Of a stretch of DNA of 64,000 nt, positions 12,196 through 32,426 are shown one piece after another. The notes under the pieces are model-generated. The model did not search any database. It was not told the origin of the DNA and saw only the letters and a list, made by a program, of their open reading frames with translations. The first letter of the stretch is position 1; every line of letters begins with the position of its first letter. Position numbers and translations under genes: made by a program. The stretch spans positions 195 to 64,194 of the forward strand of contig CAZFTQ010000002.1 of NCBI GenBank assembly GCA_964522365.1, read 5' to 3'. The stretch is from an uncultured Desulfovibrio sp. (GTDB taxonomy: Bacteria > Desulfobacterota > Desulfovibrionia > Desulfovibrionales > Desulfovibrionaceae).

Positions 12196-12232
12196 AAAGC
12201 CCGTGACTTCGCAGCAAGCCACGGGCTTTTTT
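12196..12232 (+). terminator. Rho-independent terminator downstream of hflC
   Basis: Stem AGCCCGTG / CACGGGCT (12198-12205 / 12220-12227) followed by TTTTTT (12227-12232). Confidence 0.7.
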
Positions 12233-12538
12233 CAGCGAGGGCTGTCCCGCCGCTGAGAACGGGGTCACGGCCCGCCGCCGGGGAGGAGATTTTCTTTTCC
12301 GCCGGAAAAGGTCGCAGCCTCGGATGTTTTCCTGCTCAGGACAGTCAGGACCGCTCCGAAACAGGCGCTGGCTGACTCACCAGGAAAGTTTTACCGGTAT
12401 TCTCAAATCAGAACCGGCTTTCACCGCAGGATCCCCGGCCAGGCGCGGGGCAGCGCGCCTCTTTTGCGGGGGATCCGGAAACGGCCGTCCCTGCCGCGGC
12501 GGATGTCCGGGAATGTCTGCTGCTGAGGAGAAACCATC

Positions 12539-14899
12539 GTGCAGAAGATAGACAAAACCAGCACACTTCAGAATATTCTGATGAACCGCCGTTTTACGAT
12601 AGACTATTTTCAGAGAGAGTATCGCTGGGGGCGGAAGCAGATAGAGCAGATGCTTTCTGATTTTCAGAACACATTTGAAGAATATTATGATCCGGAAGAG
12701 CATGACACGACGCTGGAAGTTGAAAAATATGGTTATTATTACCTGGGTTGCATCATCTGCACGGGAGGCTCAGCCAGCAAGGTGATTGATGGCCAGCAGC
12801 GGCTTACGTCGCTGACGCTTCTTCTGATCTACCTCATGAATCTGCAGAAGGAGCTGGGCATACCTGCTGACAGCGTCGTTGAACTTGGCAGCATGGTCTA
12901 TTCAGACCATTTCGGCGTAAAGAATTTTAATATAGATGTACCTGAGCGTTCCCGATGCATGCAGGCTCTTCTCAATAATGAGAAGAATTATACCCCGGAG
13001 AATGAAAGCACCAGGAATATGCTGGAGCGATATGAAGATATCGCTGAATGCTTCCCGGATGATCTGAAGGGAAAGGCGCTTCCCTTTTTCATATACTGGC
13101 TGAAAGGCAAGGTCTTGCTGCTGGAACTTGATACGCCCTCTGAAGATGAGGCGCATACGATTTTCCTGACAATGAATGACCGAGGCCTCAGCCTGAACAG
13201 CGCTGAGATGATGAAGGCGTATGTGATACAGCAGGTACAGGAGTCTTATCGCATAGAGGTCAATCATCGGTGGCAGGACAATATAAACAAAATTAAAAAT
13301 GCCTCCTCCAACAGTTCCAGCGGCATGGTAAACACGGAGGATGTTGAGTTTATTTCAATCTGGCTGCGTGCAAAGTACGCAGAGTCGCTTCGTGAGGCAA
13401 AGTGCGGCGCAAGAGACAGGGATTACGAACTTCTCGGCGACAAGTTCCATACCTGGGTAAGGGCGCATGCCAAAGAGAAGATGCGTCTCCAGAAATCAGA
13501 GGATTTCCGCCAGTTCGTCATGAAAGAAATGACGGCAATGACCAGACTCTACCTTCGACTCAGGGAATATTGTTCAGAGTTCACTGAAGGATATGAAGAA
13601 GTCTTTTACAATGCTGACCGTGATCTGACCTATCAGCTCATGCTTGCGCTTTCAGCTGTGAAAGTTGACGATCCCGAAGAGATTGTGAAGAAGAAGATTC
13701 AGATGACGGCGAAGTTTGTCGATGACTTTGCTTCCACCCGTATTTTCAATTTCAGAAAAGCCAACTGGAATACAAATAAATATTTTCTGTTCAAAGTGAT
13801 GTGCGATGTCCGCGATCAGGACTGCAAGACGGTGGGCATGGTTTTTGTCCGCGCATTACGCCGGATGGACGCCGGTCTCGACGGTATCACGAAATTCAGT
13901 CTGAATCAGTTTTCCCGCCGGTATATGCTTCATGCTCTGGCCCGTTTTACCTCCCATGCAAATGTGCTCATGGGCAATCCGTCTCATTTCGACGAGTACG
14001 TCAACCGGAACCTGCACGGAAACACCTACGACATCGAGCATATCATTCCCGGCAGACATGAAGATTACAGAGAGGAGTTTCCCGATTACGATGACTTTCA
14101 GGCCCGGCGCCAGCACATCGGAAATCTGATCATTCTCACCCGCGACAAGAACAGAAGCTATCAGGATATGAAGTATTCTCAGAAAGTGGAGAAGTATTCC
14201 GGTGACAACATTCTGGCGCAGGCACTCAATGAGAACGCCTACAAAAACAATCCCCGGTTCTTGAAGGAAGTAGCCAAGCCTTACGGTTTTTCAGCGATTG
14301 CGCACTTCGACAGTCAGAGTATTGCATCGCGGGCAGAGATCTACCTGAAAATGGCCGTCGACATCTGGAATCCGGACGATATCAAGAGCCTTGCCGGAGG
14401 CTGGTCCGCTGAGGAAGAAAAGCAGTTTTTCAAGAATGTCAAGGGTCAGGAATTTACGGTTGGCTATGCCGATCGCAGCTGGAAAGACGCCCTGAAGTAT
14501 GGATTCCTCTCTGCGAATGGCCATGGAAGCGGCAGGCTCCTGCATAATGTGCAGGCCGGCGACACCGTCTTCTGTCATATTGCCGGCTCCGGATTTGTCG
14601 GAATTGGAGAATGTCTTGAGACAGCCGTTCCCATGAAGGAGTTCACCGTTGATGTTGACGGCAGCTCGACACCGGTGGCGTCGGCTCCGTGGGTTTCCGA
14701 AGAGGCAAAATCAAAGCTCGAACAGAACGAAGAAATCTTCATACGTGTCAGATGGAAGAAATTTGTGGAAGATCCTGCTGAAGGGTACTGGGAGAAAGGC
14801 ATGACCTGCGTGCCGCTGGTGGCGTACACCCTGTATGACAAAACGACGTACGACATGATCAGGGAACACTTTGATTATCGGGAGGATGCTCAGGAATGA
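12539..14899 (+). CDS. GmrSD-like DUF262 (DGQQR/ParB-type) + DUF1524 (His-Me finger nuclease) protein with an additional C-terminal domain of about 165 aa. Probable type IV restriction / anti-phage enzyme.
   Basis: 786-aa ORF. N-terminal FTIDYFQREYRWG and VIDGQQRLTSLTLLL (codons at 12788-12802). Nuclease motif YDIEHIIPG...HIGNLIILTRDKNRSY (about 14030-14160). GAGGAG RBS lies 8 nt before GTG 12539; in-frame ATG 12581 is the alternative. Low G+C relative to the flanks. Confidence 0.85.
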   Translation: MQKIDKTSTLQNILMNRRFTIDYFQREYRWGRKQIEQMLSDFQNTFEEYYDPEEHDTTLEVEKYGYYYLGCIICTGGSASKVIDGQQRLTSLTLLLIYLMNLQKELGIPADSVVELGSMVYSDHFGVKNFNIDVPERSRCMQALLNNEKNYTPENESTRNMLERYEDIAECFPDDLKGKALPFFIYWLKGKVLLLELDTPSEDEAHTIFLTMNDRGLSLNSAEMMKAYVIQQVQESYRIEVNHRWQDNINKIKNASSNSSSGMVNTEDVEFISIWLRAKYAESLREAKCGARDRDYELLGDKFHTWVRAHAKEKMRLQKSEDFRQFVMKEMTAMTRLYLRLREYCSEFTEGYEEVFYNADRDLTYQLMLALSAVKVDDPEEIVKKKIQMTAKFVDDFASTRIFNFRKANWNTNKYFLFKVMCDVRDQDCKTVGMVFVRALRRMDAGLDGITKFSLNQFSRRYMLHALARFTSHANVLMGNPSHFDEYVNRNLHGNTYDIEHIIPGRHEDYREEFPDYDDFQARRQHIGNLIILTRDKNRSYQDMKYSQKVEKYSGDNILAQALNENAYKNNPRFLKEVAKPYGFSAIAHFDSQSIASRAEIYLKMAVDIWNPDDIKSLAGGWSAEEEKQFFKNVKGQEFTVGYADRSWKDALKYGFLSANGHGSGRLLHNVQAGDTVFCHIAGSGFVGIGECLETAVPMKEFTVDVDGSSTPVASAPWVSEEAKSKLEQNEEIFIRVRWKKFVEDPAEGYWEKGMTCVPLVAYTLYDKTTYDMIREHFDYREDAQE

Positions 14900-27734: not shown

Positions 27735-30311
27735 TCAGGCTTCGTCGTCGGGCCGCTTGCCCGTGCAGACATACTTCTGGGAGGGGCCCTTGCCCTCGCG
27801 CACCACATAGCCCGCCGCCGCGAGCTCCTGGAGATCGTAGAGGGCGGTGCGCGCCGAGATGCCTGCCATCTCCTGGTAGCTCTGGCGGGTCACTTCGCCC
27901 CGCTCCATGAGCTTCGGCAGAATGCGCCGGAGACGGGCGCTCAGGGGCTGCCGGGAGGCCGGCGTCTCCTCGCCGTTTTCCCCTTCCTCCTGTTCCCGGG
28001 AGCGGGCGGGATTTTTCCGGCCGCCGCGGCCGTTTCCGGCGGCTTCCCGGTTCTGGTCGCCGGAGTTCTGGGGAAGGGCGCCCGCGGCCTTGGCCTGCGC
28101 GGCGGGCTCGGGCAGGCTGTTCTTGTTCTGCTGGGCGCCCAGGGGGAGATGCTGGGGCAGGATGAGATCGCCCTCGCAGAAGGCCTCCGCGCTGAGGATG
28201 GTGTTGTAGAGCTCCCGGACATTGCCCGGCCAGTCGTAGTGCATGATGCGGCTCAGGGCGCCCCGGCTGATGCCCGGCATGCGGCGCGGCTCGGGGGACT
28301 TCGCCACGGCTTCCTGGAGGAAGGCCATGACGAGGTAGGGGATGTCCGACTTGTGGAAGCGCAGGGGCGGGGTGCGGATGACGATGACGGCCAGGCGGAA
28401 GTAGAGGTCTTCCCGGAAGGAGCCGGTCTGGATGGCCTCCTTGAGCTCCGCGTTGGTGGCGGCGATGACCCTGGTGCTGAAGGGAACGGGGGTGTCGCTG
28501 CCCAGGGGGAGAATGCAGCGGTCCGAGAGGGCCCGCAGCAGAGCCTGCTGGACCTTGGGAGAGGCCGTTCCCACTTCATCCAGCATGAGGGTGCCGCCCT
28601 CGGCCGTGAGGAAGGCGCCCTTGCGGGCCTGGCGGGCCTCCGTGTAGGCCCCCTTCACATGGCCGAAGAGGGTGTCCATGAGCAGGCCTTCGTCCAGGGC
28701 GCCGCAGTTGATGGTGATGAAAGGACCGTCCTTCCGGGCCGAAAGCCTGTGGATGGCCCGGCTCACGAGTTCCTTGCCGGTGCCCGTTTCGCCCATGATG
28801 AGCACGTCCGCGTCCACCCGGGCCGCCTGGAGGATTTCCTGCCTGAGCTGGGCGATTTCCCGGCTCACGCCGATGATGCCGTCCTCGGGCTGGGGGATGC
28901 TCACGGGCATGGAGGTGACTTCCTCCATCTGCAGGCGCGCGGAGGCGAGAGTGTATTCCTTGTCCCGCTCCTCCTCGAGCCCGCGCAGAAGCTTCAGCAG
29001 GCTGTTGACGCTGTCCCTGAGCTGGGCCACTTCCCGGGGCTCCTCCGCCTGCGCGGGCAGGACGGGGGCGAGGCTCTGGCCGGCGGCCGTCTGGATTTCC
29101 CGGCGCAGGCTCTTCAGGGAGCGGCTCAGGTGGGAGGCTATCCACCAGCAGGCGGCGCTCATGAGGAGGAGACAGGCGAGGCAGGCCGTGAGGCAGACGG
29201 CCTGGAGGGCGCCTCCCTGCTTGGTGGACCCGAAGGTGGGGTCGAGCACCACCATGCCGCCGATGACCTCGCTCGTGCCGGACTCGCCCGTGGCGTAGGT
29301 GACGGGGGCGTAGCTCACGATCTCCACGGTGGGCATGCCCTGGTTCCAGGGCACGTCCCGGGTGGCGAACTGGCCGGACCGGTTCTGGGTGATGTCGTTC
29401 ATCATGGTCCAGTAGCCGTAATAGTCGGCTTCCGGACGGAAGGCCTGGCTGAAGCCGGCGCGGCCGAAATCGCCCCGGAAGCCCGCGCGCACGCTGTCGA
29501 TGATGGCGGACTTGCGGCTGGTGGAGAGGCTCGGGCGGGTCTGGAAGATCATCCAGCCGTCGTGATCCACGAAGAGGGCGGGCATGGGCTGCTGGCCCTC
29601 GTCGGCGGCGGAGAGGGAGAAGGTCGTCACCGCGTCGTTGAGGTAGGAGAGATTGAGGGAGATGACCAGGTAGCCCGCGGCGGTGCCGTCGGTGAGGGTG
29701 ACGAGGGTGGTGAAGCGCACCACATGGAGGGTGAGCTGGGTCTGCTTGCGGTCCTCTCCGGAGATGAAGGAATAGGTGACTTCCGTGGGAGCGCTCAAGG
29801 AGACCTCGTTTTCCTTGGGCAGGCGGGTCGAGAAGCTGAAGGGGGAGCCCGTCTGGCTGTCCAGCTGGGCCGAGGGAATGCTGAGCATCCTGCCGCCCTG
29901 GACAATCCAGAGCCGGCGGAAGCCCCCCTGGGCGCCGATGCCGATGATGGCCGCCTCGGAAAAGCGCTTGTCGCCGAGGCTCGTGAGGGTCTCCAGGCGG
30001 CGGTTGAGACGGTGCTCAAGTTCCGAGAGACTGGCGGAGCCGGCCGCCAGGGAGGCCGTCTGATTCCTGGTCTCCCTGAGGGTCTGGGTCATGGCGAAGC
30101 CCATGGCTTCGGCCATGATGGAGGAATTTCTCGCAATGGCGCGGTCCAGAGTGCCGCCCACCTCGTTGTGCGTGATGAGGAAGATTCCCGTGAGGATGAC
30201 GAGGGGCACAGGCAGGAGGAAGCAGCACAGCCGCCGGAGAAGACTGGCATTCCCGAATATTTTCGGCTTCCCCGGCAGGAAGGCTCTGGGTGAAAGATGG
30301 ATTTGCGGCAT
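27735..30311 (-). CDS. Membrane-anchored one-component sigma-54-type activator: TM, periplasmic sensor of about 330 aa, TM, AAA+ domain, low-complexity linker, winged-helix C-terminus
   Basis: ORF 27735..30371. Two hydrophobic helices (LCCFLLPVPLVILTGIFLI; ALQAVCLTACLACLLLMSAACWWIA). AAA+ motifs GETGTGKE, GAYTEA loop (28635-28652) and WPGNVRELYN. The C-terminus EVTRQSYQEMAGISARTALYDLQELAAAGYVVREGKG is wHTH-like. ATG 30311 or ATG 30371 as start. Confidence 0.85.
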   Translation of the reverse strand: MPQIHLSPRAFLPGKPKIFGNASLLRRLCCFLLPVPLVILTGIFLITHNEVGGTLDRAIARNSSIMAEAMGFAMTQTLRETRNQTASLAAGSASLSELEHRLNRRLETLTSLGDKRFSEAAIIGIGAQGGFRRLWIVQGGRMLSIPSAQLDSQTGSPFSFSTRLPKENEVSLSAPTEVTYSFISGEDRKQTQLTLHVVRFTTLVTLTDGTAAGYLVISLNLSYLNDAVTTFSLSAADEGQQPMPALFVDHDGWMIFQTRPSLSTSRKSAIIDSVRAGFRGDFGRAGFSQAFRPEADYYGYWTMMNDITQNRSGQFATRDVPWNQGMPTVEIVSYAPVTYATGESGTSEVIGGMVVLDPTFGSTKQGGALQAVCLTACLACLLLMSAACWWIASHLSRSLKSLRREIQTAAGQSLAPVLPAQAEEPREVAQLRDSVNSLLKLLRGLEEERDKEYTLASARLQMEEVTSMPVSIPQPEDGIIGVSREIAQLRQEILQAARVDADVLIMGETGTGKELVSRAIHRLSARKDGPFITINCGALDEGLLMDTLFGHVKGAYTEARQARKGAFLTAEGGTLMLDEVGTASPKVQQALLRALSDRCILPLGSDTPVPFSTRVIAATNAELKEAIQTGSFREDLYFRLAVIVIRTPPLRFHKSDIPYLVMAFLQEAVAKSPEPRRMPGISRGALSRIMHYDWPGNVRELYNTILSAEAFCEGDLILPQHLPLGAQQNKNSLPEPAAQAKAAGALPQNSGDQNREAAGNGRGGRKNPARSREQEEGENGEETPASRQPLSARLRRILPKLMERGEVTRQSYQEMAGISARTALYDLQELAAAGYVVREGKGPSQKYVCTGKRPDDEA

Positions 30312-30376
30312 TGCGCGATCTCCGGAGAGGTCTTGTTGCGGGACTCTAGCACGCAATGCGCGCTTTTGCAAATTTT

Positions 30377-30403
30377 TTCACAAGCTCGCGGGCGAATTGT
30401 GAA
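30377..30403. promoter_or_regulatory. Inverted repeat TTCACAA-N13-TTGTGAA next to the activator gene start
   Basis: TTCACAA 30377-30383 and TTGTGAA 30397-30403. Same half-site as the 30837-30874 repeat. Confidence 0.5.
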
Positions 30404-30836
30404 AGATTTCTTTCCGCTGAAGAGGGAAAGAGGCGGGAAGGAAGCGGACGGATGAACCGGACCGGGCCCCGCGCAGAGCGTGTCCGCGACCTTCCGACGC
30501 GCATTTTTCCCTCGTGATGCCGGTTCGATGCGTGATTTTTCTGCGCGACGGGCGGGAAGGACGGAAGAGGCGCCGGAGGGAGGCCTCCGGTCCGCCCGCA
30601 GGGCCGCCCGCGGGGATCCCCTCACGCAGTTCGGGGAGAGAAAAGGTAAAGGAAAGGCGGAAATGCATGTGAAGCGTGAAAGGAAACTGAAAAACGCCCT
30701 GTCCTGAGGGGCGGAGGCAGGCAGTTTCAGGGAAAAAGAAGAGAAAACAAGCTTTTTTTTCAGCGGGGACAAAGCGATGAGACGCCTTTTCCCCGCCGGA
30801 AAAAGAACCGTCTCCCTCCGCCAGGCCCGAAGAGCG

Positions 30837-30874
30837 TGTGAAAGGAGAGCTCCGAACGGAAGTTTTTTTTCACA
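30837..30874. promoter_or_regulatory. Inverted repeat TGTGAAA-N24-TTTCACA, candidate upstream activator sequence
   Basis: TGTGAAA 30837-30843 and TTTCACA 30868-30874. The centre lies about 100 bp upstream of the -24 element. Further half-sites are at 30668-30673, 30676-30681 and 30882-30887. Confidence 0.5.
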
Positions 30875-30951
30875 AGGCCGCTTCACGCTTTGCCTTTTTT
30901 CGTGCGGAACCCTTGCCCGCGGGCGCTTCCTGGCGGCGCGCAGTCACGCAA

Positions 30952-30967
30952 TGGCACGGTCCTTGCT
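30952..30967 (+). promoter_or_regulatory. Sigma-54 (-24/-12) promoter
   Basis: TGGCAC (30952-30957), ggtcc, TTGCT (30963-30967). This is an exact match to TGGCAC-N5-TTGCW, 68 nt upstream of ATG 31035. Confidence 0.8.
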
Positions 30968-31034
30968 ATAGAGGCTTTGACCGGCGAAAGCCTTTTTTCG
31001 CTCTGTCTCAGAAGTTTTTGACAAGGAGTGAGTC

Positions 31035-31337
31035 ATGACGAAGCTGAGAAAACTTTCAATGTGGTTTGCGGGGTGTCTCGCCACCCTGCTGGTGTTCGCG
31101 CCGTCTCTGGCGATGGCCGCGAAGAAAGCCGCGGCCAACGTGGTCATCGTTGCCGACACCAGAAAACTGGACGGCATCATGCTGTGGTGGGCTCAGATGT
31201 ACAATGACAGCCATCTGCAGTTCATGCTGCTGACCATCATCATCGTGCCCGTGACCGGATGTATCTTCGGTCTGCTGGCCGACGTGGTGATGAAGCACAT
31301 CGGCATCGACCTCAAGCACCGCAAACTCGCTGAGTAA
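31035..31337 (+). CDS. Small secreted/membrane protein (100 aa), unknown function
   Basis: AGGAG RBS. Signal peptide (CLATLLVFAPSLAMA) and a C-terminal TM helix (FMLLTIIIVPVTGCIFGLLADVV). Confidence 0.7.
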   Translation: MTKLRKLSMWFAGCLATLLVFAPSLAMAAKKAAANVVIVADTRKLDGIMLWWAQMYNDSHLQFMLLTIIIVPVTGCIFGLLADVVMKHIGIDLKHRKLAE

Positions 31338-31352
31338 CGAGGGGAGGATCTT

Positions 31353-32426
31353 ATGGACTGGTTATATGTCTTGATGCCCATTTCAGGCTGCCTCATTTTC
31401 TGGCCCGGCCTGATCATCCTCGGACTCGGCGTCGGCATCATCGGCGGTTTCTTCGGACTGGGCGGCGCCTGGATGGTGACCCCCGGCCTCAACATCCTCG
31501 GTTTCCCGATGTCCTTCGCCATCGGCACCGACGTGTCCCACATGGCTGGCAAATGCATCATTTCCACCATGCGTCACGGCAGTTTCGGCAACGTTGACTA
31601 CAAGCTCGGCCTGACCATGCTCATCGGTACGGTCATCGGCGTTGAAATCGGCGCCCAGATCGTCATGCAGCTGGAACGCCTCGGCAACGTTGAACAGGTT
31701 GTCAAGTGGCTCTATGTCGTTCTGCTCGTCCTCCTCGCCTGGATGGTGTTCCATGACATCGCCAAGAGGAAGAGAATCGCCCGCGAACTCGCCGACAAGG
31801 GCCAGAAGATGGACGACATGCAGCTCGGCATTGACTGGGCCAGCCGCCTGCACGCCATCCGCATTCCTCCCATGGTGCACTTCCACCAGGCCGGCATTTA
31901 CTGCACCGCCTGGCTGCCCATTCTCGTCTCCCTGCTGACCGGCATGCTGGCCGGCATCCTGGGCATCGGCGGCGGCCTCATCCGCATGCCCGCCCTCGTC
32001 TACCTCGTCGGCTGCCCGACCCACCTGGCCGTCGGTACCGACCTCTTTGAATGCGCCATTTCCGGCCTCTACGGCTGCGCCACCTACACTCTGAAGGGCC
32101 GCACCGAACTCATCGCCGCTCTCATCATGCTCGTCGGCGCCGCCATCGGCGCCCAGATCGGCGCAGTGGCCACCAAGTACATCCAGGGCTACGGCATCCG
32201 CTCCGCTTTCGGCGCGGCCGTCCTTGGCTGCCTCTGCTCCGTCGTTCTGAAGCTCATCCAGCCCTACTTCCCCGATTACTCCAGCATCATCAACGGTCTC
32301 GCCACCGTTGTCGTTCTTGGCTTCGTGTCCCTCATTTCCATCTACATCGCTGCCAAGATGGTCTCCGGTGCCAAGCAGGAACTTGCGGAAAAGAGGCGGC
32401 AGCAGGAACAGGCTGCTCAGAACTAG
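31353..32426 (+). CDS. TauE/SafE (TSUP, DUF81) family anion permease
   Basis: 357 aa. Two 4-TM halves with GGFFGLGGAWMV and GILGIGGGLIRMP repeats, joined by a charged loop. Confidence 0.85.
   Translation: MDWLYVLMPISGCLIFWPGLIILGLGVGIIGGFFGLGGAWMVTPGLNILGFPMSFAIGTDVSHMAGKCIISTMRHGSFGNVDYKLGLTMLIGTVIGVEIGAQIVMQLERLGNVEQVVKWLYVVLLVLLAWMVFHDIAKRKRIARELADKGQKMDDMQLGIDWASRLHAIRIPPMVHFHQAGIYCTAWLPILVSLLTGMLAGILGIGGGLIRMPALVYLVGCPTHLAVGTDLFECAISGLYGCATYTLKGRTELIAALIMLVGAAIGAQIGAVATKYIQGYGIRSAFGAAVLGCLCSVVLKLIQPYFPDYSSIINGLATVVVLGFVSLISIYIAAKMVSGAKQELAEKRRQQEQAAQN

Follow-up and report, generated by a model that had tools for sequence, protein, structure and literature searches.

A GmrSD-family gene of an uncultured Desulfovibrio sp. 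has a conserved C-terminal domain of predicted EVE/YTH-like fold and probably encodes a three-module restriction enzyme

What is the additional C-terminal domain of a GmrSD-like nuclease encoded by an uncultured Desulfovibrio sp., and what could it do for the enzyme? GmrSD-family enzymes are nucleoside triphosphate (NTP)-stimulated nucleases that act on modified DNA. One such gene lies in a 64,000-nucleotide stretch of contig CAZFTQ010000002.1 (hereafter the window, with positions counted from its first letter), and its 786-residue product continues for about 165 residues beyond the recognizable enzyme. An initial annotation, made from the DNA letters, read this tail as resembling an EVE/PUA-type reader of modified bases and, if so, the whole as a combination of NTPase, nuclease and reader. 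We find support for that reading at the level of fold and context. The gene probably encodes a three-module type IV restriction enzyme, consisting of a DUF262 NTPase, a DUF1524 nuclease and a C-terminal PUA-like reader barrel.

The core of the enzyme is readily identified. Pfam places GmrSD_N (97.3 bits against a gathering score of 33.2) and GmrSD_C (43.7 bits against 23) within residues 1 to ~620, where the two-domain GmrSD layout had been proposed (Table 1). The DGQQR motif occupies residues 84–88 (12788–12802), inside VIDGQQRLTSL, and DIEH occupies residues 498–501 (14030–14041), inside YDIEHIIPG. The (D/E)-H...N...N motif of DUF1524 includes NLIILTRDKNRS at residues 529–540 (14123–14158), of which NLIILTRDKN forms residues 529–538. 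The middle region has no Pfam match of its own; an α-helical linker of 200–400 residues is typical between the two domains in this family (PMC4619093). The PADLOC Orf5 profile PDLC02693 aligns to residues 16–610 over positions 6–542 of its 543, and a sequence search of the PDB with the whole protein returned only 9jfl, a "DUF262 domain-containing protein", which matches the N-terminal domain (E 2.5e-7). DUF262 with DGQQR, a helical middle and the DUF1524 motifs are likewise the features of GmrSD CT596, Eco94GmrSD, BrxU, SspE and the PADLOC Orf5/HEC-06 proteins (PMC4619093, PMC12707154). With every sequence-definable feature of the GmrSD family in place, the 786-residue protein is, judged by its sequence, a member. 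The strings quoted in the initial annotation are all found where it had put them, and the extra stretch does begin at 14402, with WSAEEEKQFF at residue 622. Further motifs within it are GDTVFCH (674–680), FVGIGE (686–691), IFIRVRWKKF (733–742) and TTYDMIREHF (769–778).

The comparison with relatives argues that the tail is an additional module, as had been suggested, and not an ordinary extension of DUF1524 proteins. Full-length PADLOC profiles of the GmrSD type (Orf5 and HEC-06, 543–601 positions) stop at enzyme residue ~610. Among 34 plasmid records with a homologue, 32 (28–35% identity) align to residues ~9–621 only, ending at 610–621, and the tail is covered in the remaining two, both close relatives. 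Classical GmrSD enzymes measure ~540–620 amino acids and end at the equivalent of residue ~610, whereas this enzyme goes on with a helical linker and a predicted PUA-like barrel of ~150 amino acids, a domain that is not among the extra domains listed for the family in 2015 (DUF4268, DUF4357 and DNA_binding_1; PMC4619093).

Within its own subgroup the tail is a nearly constant feature. Approximately 115 of the 120 nearest database homologues of residues 1–601 measure 779–823 amino acids, a length indicating that they carry it too. Across 114 aligned full-length proteins, identity to the enzyme is 68% in the tail core and 69–72% in the catalytic domains, with a column entropy of 0.82 versus 0.62–0.67 bits. 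By these measures, conservation of the tail equals that of the catalytic domains. The combination of GmrSD and tail also appears in distant proteins (P0106 at 33% and P0056 at 24% full-length identity), and proteins of 950–1126 amino acids have DUF262 at the N-terminus and the tail domain at the C-terminus; on this evidence the architecture is old. An exhaustive profile search with the tail domain retrieved 528 clusters (50% identity) at E<=1e-3. Because it is conserved on a par with the catalytic domains and its profile finds so many clusters, the tail is, on sequence grounds, not a fortuitous lengthening of the ORF.

Natural truncations show where the module starts. In a Bifidobacterium metagenome-assembled genome (L013 5890–7800), a 67%-identical copy stops at query residue ~586, ending in KYGFPSRTQRVLHDFIKAV before the stop codon, and has lost linker and tail. 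Intact open reading frames of ~181 amino acids hold the opposite part, linker and tail only (P0009, P0002 and P0005; 67–76% identical to the tail; L001 6001–6546, also L002–L004, L005 5875–6423 and L006 4711–5256). Such ~181-residue homologues (P0001, P0002, P0005, P0009, P0012) were first taken as stand-alone readers. For P0002, P0005 and P0009 that reading is ruled out by tblastn and in-frame translation, which identify them as 5'-decayed remnants of full-length genes: upstream of their ATGs, homology runs on as far as a stop codon or into dispersed N-terminal fragments. That the tail ORF was kept intact in three independent decays could be chance, or the tail alone could be tolerated or useful. 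The two independent breakpoints, at residue 584 in L001 and 586 in L013, point to a module boundary right after DUF1524, just upstream of the helical linker. Adjoining the L001 remnant is a CTD11 / MC7 / DUF2326 gene set with a helix-turn-helix gene (L001 2345–5601), whose domains, we presume, resemble ABC-three-component conflict systems.

To assign a fold to the tail, we relied on two structural models. The first was built from close homologues (pLDDT 77.6) and already matched EVE, YTH and ASCH structures in Foldseek. The second, an AlphaFold model from alignment A3 (50 sequences, 23–68% identity), reached pLDDT 92.6 and pTM 0.86. Nearly all of its top 50 PDB matches are PUA-like, with a probability of 0.99–1.00 for the first 32, and the best is the EVE domain of the EVE-HNH enzyme VcaM4I (E 1e-4). 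EVE proteins give TM-scores of 0.52/0.59 (PH1033), 0.50/0.56 (MJECL36), 0.45/0.50 (Rpa0253) and 0.44/0.48 (Atu2648). Many YTHDF1/2/3 entries have E-values similar to those of EVE (1e-4 to 8e-3; 1e-4 to 1e-3 for YTHDF2) but lower TM-scores (0.36–0.45). Lower in the ranking are ASCH proteins, YqfB among them (TM 0.41–0.46, E 1e-2 to 0.2), McrB-N of Staphylothermus and classical PUA domains, and the named matches in the viral library (BFVD) are EVE and ASCH proteins. By TM-score of the model, EVE is the closest class. The tail is thus modelled as a PUA-like pseudo-barrel that can be superposed on EVE structures. In tail numbering it contains a β-hairpin (55–60 / 64–77), a long strand (111–121) and a C-terminal helix (147–156), so that the strand pair, later strand and terminal helix that the initial annotation had picked out by eye turn out to be real secondary-structure elements of the model.

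Similarity to EVE can also be detected at the level of sequence. When 50 members of the tail family were scanned individually, EVE and YTH were the Pfam families matched most often, by four members (best E 8e-4) and two members (E at least 0.027), respectively, all below threshold. We also aligned A3 by hhalign to an EVE profile of 75 sequences from metagenome loci, in which matches were annotated PF01878 or confirmed by tblastn (the THYN1 search bait is 100% identical to a database protein). The two profiles aligned over 48 columns with a probability of 65%, E 6e-5 and a score of 34.5. All 61 controls scored below this, the reversed profile at 12.0 and the 60 block shuffles at a maximum of 25.5. 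The alignment pairs R-x-W648-x-D650 with the EVE motif W-D-G-V-R-N ("WDGVRNYQARN"), G-D-T-V-F-C-H with G-D-x-a-F-F-Y-H-S, and G-F-V-G-I-G with G-I-v-G-i, and its strand pair is the one to which the initial annotation had pointed. Foldseek matches that are almost all PUA-like, weak Pfam EVE and YTH matches in relatives and an hhalign score above controls agree with the EVE/PUA-type fold suggested earlier, and we are highly confident that the tail has a PUA-like, EVE/YTH-type fold.

We liken the tail to an EVE reader but do not place it in the Pfam EVE family (PF01878, PUA-like clan): it has the fold and lacks the sequence match. It is not assigned to YTH (PF04146) either, as the matches in relatives are weak and the structure match is not clearly best. 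The presence of ASCH proteins among the fold matches raises another possibility, namely that the tail is an ASCH-type enzyme that removes or processes a base modification, as the N4-acylcytidine amidohydrolase YqfB does. Consistent with this, E, T and R are among the residues conserved in the family. However, the ASCH structure matches are weaker than those of EVE and YTH, Pfam ASCH is matched by none of the 50 members at E<=10 compared to six for EVE or YTH, and the nuclease and TIR fusions described below suit a sensor better than a repair enzyme. An ASCH-type activity is therefore very improbable.

The tail belongs to a large family that has so far gone without a name. It spans ~145 amino acids, and its position varies among proteins of many lengths. 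Residues conserved across the family in A3 are R646, W648 (codon 14480–14482), D650, G655, G674, G685, V687, G688, G690, E732, W739 (codon 14753–14755), G754 and T770. The tail region (residues 602–786) has no Pfam match, and no NCBIfam or PHROG model matches the tail; nor did the phage collection searched contain a match. Its one counterpart is the PADLOC HMM PDLC04916 of PDC-S11, matched at positions 203–356 of 358 (E 4e-26). These results agree with the earlier suggestion of a domain in no named family that may be new, as PDC-S11 is itself an uncharacterized PADLOC candidate. We found no experimental work on the tail family or PDC-S11 in the literature, one preprint mentioning PDC-S11 not included. 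Although no model in Pfam, NCBIfam or PHROGs represents this unnamed putative reader family, it marks a large conserved subgroup of GmrSD proteins that are annotated only as "DUF262 domain-containing protein".

PDC-S11 (HMMs PDLC04915 and PDLC04916) shares the C-terminal domain with our enzyme but differs in having an N-terminal NucS_C-like PD-(D/E)XK nuclease, and it is a computational candidate only. Tail-family representatives of ~360 amino acids are full-length PDC-S11 proteins (positions 1–356, E 1e-139 to 1e-154). The enzyme itself is not a PDC-S11 protein, as it matches only the C-terminal part of the HMM. Other PDC-S11 HMMs have only the N-terminal nuclease in common, indicating that the tail domain is a swappable module there as well.

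We scanned 79 longer representatives of the tail family with Pfam. A NucS_C-type PD-(D/E)XK nuclease is found in 17, GmrSD_C in 12, GmrSD_N in 7, TIR_2 in 6 (with the related models TIR in 4 and ThsB_TIR in 2), DUF5655 in 5 and PLDc_2 in 2; AAA_5 (McrB-like), GIY-YIG, nSTAND3 and SLATT_4 each occur once. Judged by these domain assignments, they are the partners that reader modules usually have in modification-dependent restriction. Individual proteins extend the range of architectures. P0042, a 476-residue metagenome TIR-domain protein, has two tandem copies of the domain (residues 140–296 and 309–461), P0100 joins it to an HEC-05/NsnA-like DUF262, and P0173 to a type II REase-like module (REase_II). 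Some tail-family ORFs are too short for more than the domain, and many of these may be fragments.

A PUA-like reader joined to a nuclease is a well-known design. EVE readers have a partner repertoire of PD-(D/E)XK, HNH, PLD, GIY-YIG and McrB, and "rare fusions to homologs of GmrSD" have been noted (PMC7641849), although GmrSD and DUF262 are not mentioned in the supplementary text of Bell et al. 2020. The tail family has the same list of partners as the EVE/YTH readers (Bell et al. 2020; T. gammatolerans YTH-McrB), including one member with AAA_5. Those surveys used recognizable domains, whereas the tail family escapes Pfam models. Among characterized enzymes, the EVE-HNH group (VcaM4I, TspA15I) resembles ours in combining a PUA-like reader barrel, a helical linker and a His-Me/HNH-type nuclease. 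In VcaM4I, the reader is N-terminal and recognizable as EVE by sequence, and there is no NTPase module; in our enzyme the putative reader is C-terminal, the nuclease is a DUF1524 domain accompanied by a ParB-like NTPase, and the reader domain falls below the Pfam EVE threshold. In the EVE domain of VcaM4I, P24, W82 and Y130 form a hydrophobic pocket into which the domain flips 5mC/5hmC, and EVE domain and linker together block the HNH domain, such that removing both yields a toxic, non-specific nuclease (PMC7897488). CMoRE, another single-protein type IV enzyme, offers a second parallel, as its C-terminal domain of "function-unknown" proved to be the modification sensor. It differs from the tailed GmrSD enzyme in joining a GIY-YIG nuclease to a C-terminal domain that senses 5hmC/glc-5hmC, and sequence profile and fold searches detected no relation of the tail to a CMoRE structure.

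These parallels suggest how the tail might serve the nuclease. In the mechanism that we favor, when phage or plasmid DNA comes in, the barrel would flip one of its modified bases into a pocket, for which the aromatic and polar family-conserved residues W648, W739, F/Y686, R646, D650, E732 and T770 are candidates. Reading the base would tether, recruit or license the GmrSD nuclease on modified DNA, where the DUF262 NTPase and DUF1524 nuclease would operate as the usual NTP-stimulated cutting machine. As in VcaM4I, reader and linker may restrain the nuclease as long as no modified DNA is bound. Binding of modified bases is suggested by the modelled fold and by the fusion partners, and on balance we favor a tail that reads modified DNA to direct the nuclease.

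Several points weigh against this proposal. The candidate pocket residues are guesses from conservation. Structural similarity is at the level of fold only (TM 0.36–0.59, rmsd 4–8 Å, 8–20% identity), and, as no match is close, the tail is a divergent branch. Support from hhalign is moderate (65%) and extends over only 48 columns, and a shallow, vertebrate THYN1-only profile gave 4%, which is not significant. Pfam detects neither EVE, even at E<=10, nor YTH or ASCH in the tail of the enzyme itself, and the family profile finds no solved structure in the PDB by sequence (best E 0.16). In addition, the tail is acidic, with a pI of 4.9. BrxU, SspE and classical GmrSD sense their substrates without a separate reader, and for the first two the published work assigns recognition to their DUF262 and middle domains (PMC12707154, PMC12065111); the tail may therefore add a different function. 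Finally, as the domain is also fused to TIR, STAND and SLATT, it could be a trigger-sensor with a ligand other than DNA.

In one alternative, the barrel senses RNA, a nucleotide or nucleobase in free form, or a small molecule made by the phage, and acts as an allosteric trigger and not in DNA targeting. The acidic tail would fit such a role, as would the YTH and PUA structure matches, which are RNA binders, the fusions to non-nuclease abortive-infection effectors (TIR, nSTAND3, SLATT_4), and the ability of GmrSD relatives to recognize modified DNA through their DUF262 and middle domains. Yet most fusion partners are DNA nucleases in the style of type IV restriction, the best structure match is the DNA-reading EVE domain of a restriction enzyme, and EVE-nuclease fusions are established sensors of DNA modification. 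We consider this alternative unlikely.

It is also conceivable that the tail has no ligand of its own and is mainly structural or regulatory, serving in oligomerization or nuclease autoinhibition, or acting as a decoy that draws off anti-restriction proteins of phages. The steric block by the EVE domain and linker of VcaM4I is one precedent, the dependence of BrxU/GmrSD activity on the dimer state another, and CMoRE uses a negatively charged element as a safety catch, a role for which an acidic tail would be suited. However, R, W, D, E, W and T residues are near-invariant across GmrSD, NucS-like, TIR, PLD and McrB-like partners, and conserved residues across such different partners are not expected of a partner-specific docking surface. 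The tandem copies in a TIR protein and the short domain-only ORFs (many of which may be fragments) also speak against it. A mainly structural or regulatory tail thus seems quite improbable, and modified-DNA reading stays our preferred account.

In four loci (L011, L017, L012 and L016), homologues of the three-module enzyme lie directly downstream of type I restriction-modification (R-M) operons comprising HsdM, HsdS and HsdR, and two of these operons, in L011 and L017, have a CAP12/Pycsar-type TIR gene between hsdS and hsdR as an insertion. The R-M-linked loci are from Gemmiger, Lachnospiraceae and Bacillota (L011 688–5956, with L008 3060–4475 listed alongside). Other homologues are borne on Lactobacillaceae plasmids. 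Together with the listing of PDC-S11 as a defence candidate, this context supports a restriction role, and residence of relatives in defence islands is a trait shared with the GmrSD family. The window itself lacks such a defence-island context.

Table 1. Coordinates of the GmrSD gene and its parts in the window
Feature	Residues	Position	Strand	Basis
Complete coding sequence, 786 amino acids + stop, one intact ORF		12539..14899	+	ORF list
Shine-Dalgarno-like GAGGAG, 8 nt before the GTG start		12525..12530	+	read from sequence
GmrSD_N / DUF262 ParB-like NTPase domain	13-229	12575..13225	+	Pfam PF03235, E 1.7e-27
Helical middle region between GmrSD_N and GmrSD_C	230-460	13226..13918	+	spanned by PADLOC Orf5/HEC-06 profiles
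GmrSD_C / DUF1524 His-Me finger nuclease domain	461-586	13919..14296	+	Pfam PF07510, E 3.3e-11
Helical linker, nuclease to reader-like barrel	~601-636	14339..14446	+	helices in models 1 and 2
Predicted EVE/YTH-like (PUA-like) β-barrel core	632-780	14432..14878	+	PDLC04916 match, model, Foldseek, conserved columns, hhalign
Tail, with stop codon	622-786	14402..14899	+	linker end, barrel, variable acidic C-terminus (residues 781-786)

In the window, the GmrSD gene stands among housekeeping genes. It opens with a GTG start codon, and database homologues of 780–786 amino acids (68–79% identity) span the enzyme from residue 1. Upstream are hflK and hflC (Band_7), and downstream an SLT_2 lytic transglycosylase, a cobT-type phosphoribosyltransferase, an oligopeptide ABC ATPase and hflX. 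Neither a methyltransferase nor a mobility gene is present among the immediate neighbours. This arrangement fits a type IV enzyme, and single-gene organization without a methyltransferase is common to the GmrSD family.

The gene also differs in composition from its surroundings. The GC content of its coding sequence is ~0.48 (trough ~0.44–0.54) in a genome of ~0.65, and the edges of the drop coincide with the boundaries of the coding sequence. The closest full-length relatives (68–79% identity) come from gut Firmicutes and Actinobacteria (Hungatella, Hornefia, Gemmiger, Lachnospiraceae, Megasphaera, Lactobacillus delbrueckii and Bifidobacterium) and from two Lactobacillaceae plasmids. The gene is, we infer, a lone cassette that was acquired horizontally. 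No flanking direct repeats that would explain an insertion are present, as the short repeats around the gene look like chance matches, and the 64-kb window contains no tRNA gene. Approximately 150 nt past hflC, at 12196–12229, a 14-nt inverted repeat (AAAGCCCGTGACTT / AAGCCACGGGCTTT) is followed by a run of T and is probably the hflKC terminator; if so, a spacer of ~300 nt with 60% GC precedes the low-GC cassette. A 2-kb composition profile of the window shows a second, milder dip at 30001–32000 (0.594 compared to ~0.65).

Bacteria counter phages with hypermodified DNA by means of type IV enzymes, which also serve as reagents for epigenomic mapping. The current view places substrate recognition by GmrSD enzymes in their NTPase and middle domains. 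The presence of a dedicated, putative PUA-like reader in a large and conserved subgroup suggests that specificity can also be gained by a second, modular route. More tentatively, and with well under even confidence, the tail family (>500 clusters) might form a distinct, unnamed PUA-like reader branch that recognizes a modification or hypermodification outside the range of the known EVE, SRA, YTH and winged-helix sensors. It would then act, with the same doubtful standing, as a portable "modified-DNA alarm" on nucleases (GmrSD, NucS-like/PDC-S11, PLD, GIY-YIG and McrB) and abortive-infection effectors (TIR, STAND and SLATT), and tailed GmrSD enzymes would differ in specificity from tail-less ones. 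The domain makes up the uncharacterized half of the PADLOC candidate PDC-S11 and is also found on TIR effectors. Its ligand, once determined, would annotate several defence architectures together and bring a practical gain for ~500 protein clusters whose present label is "hypothetical" or "DUF262 domain-containing protein", and the domain could yield a new modification-specific binding module.

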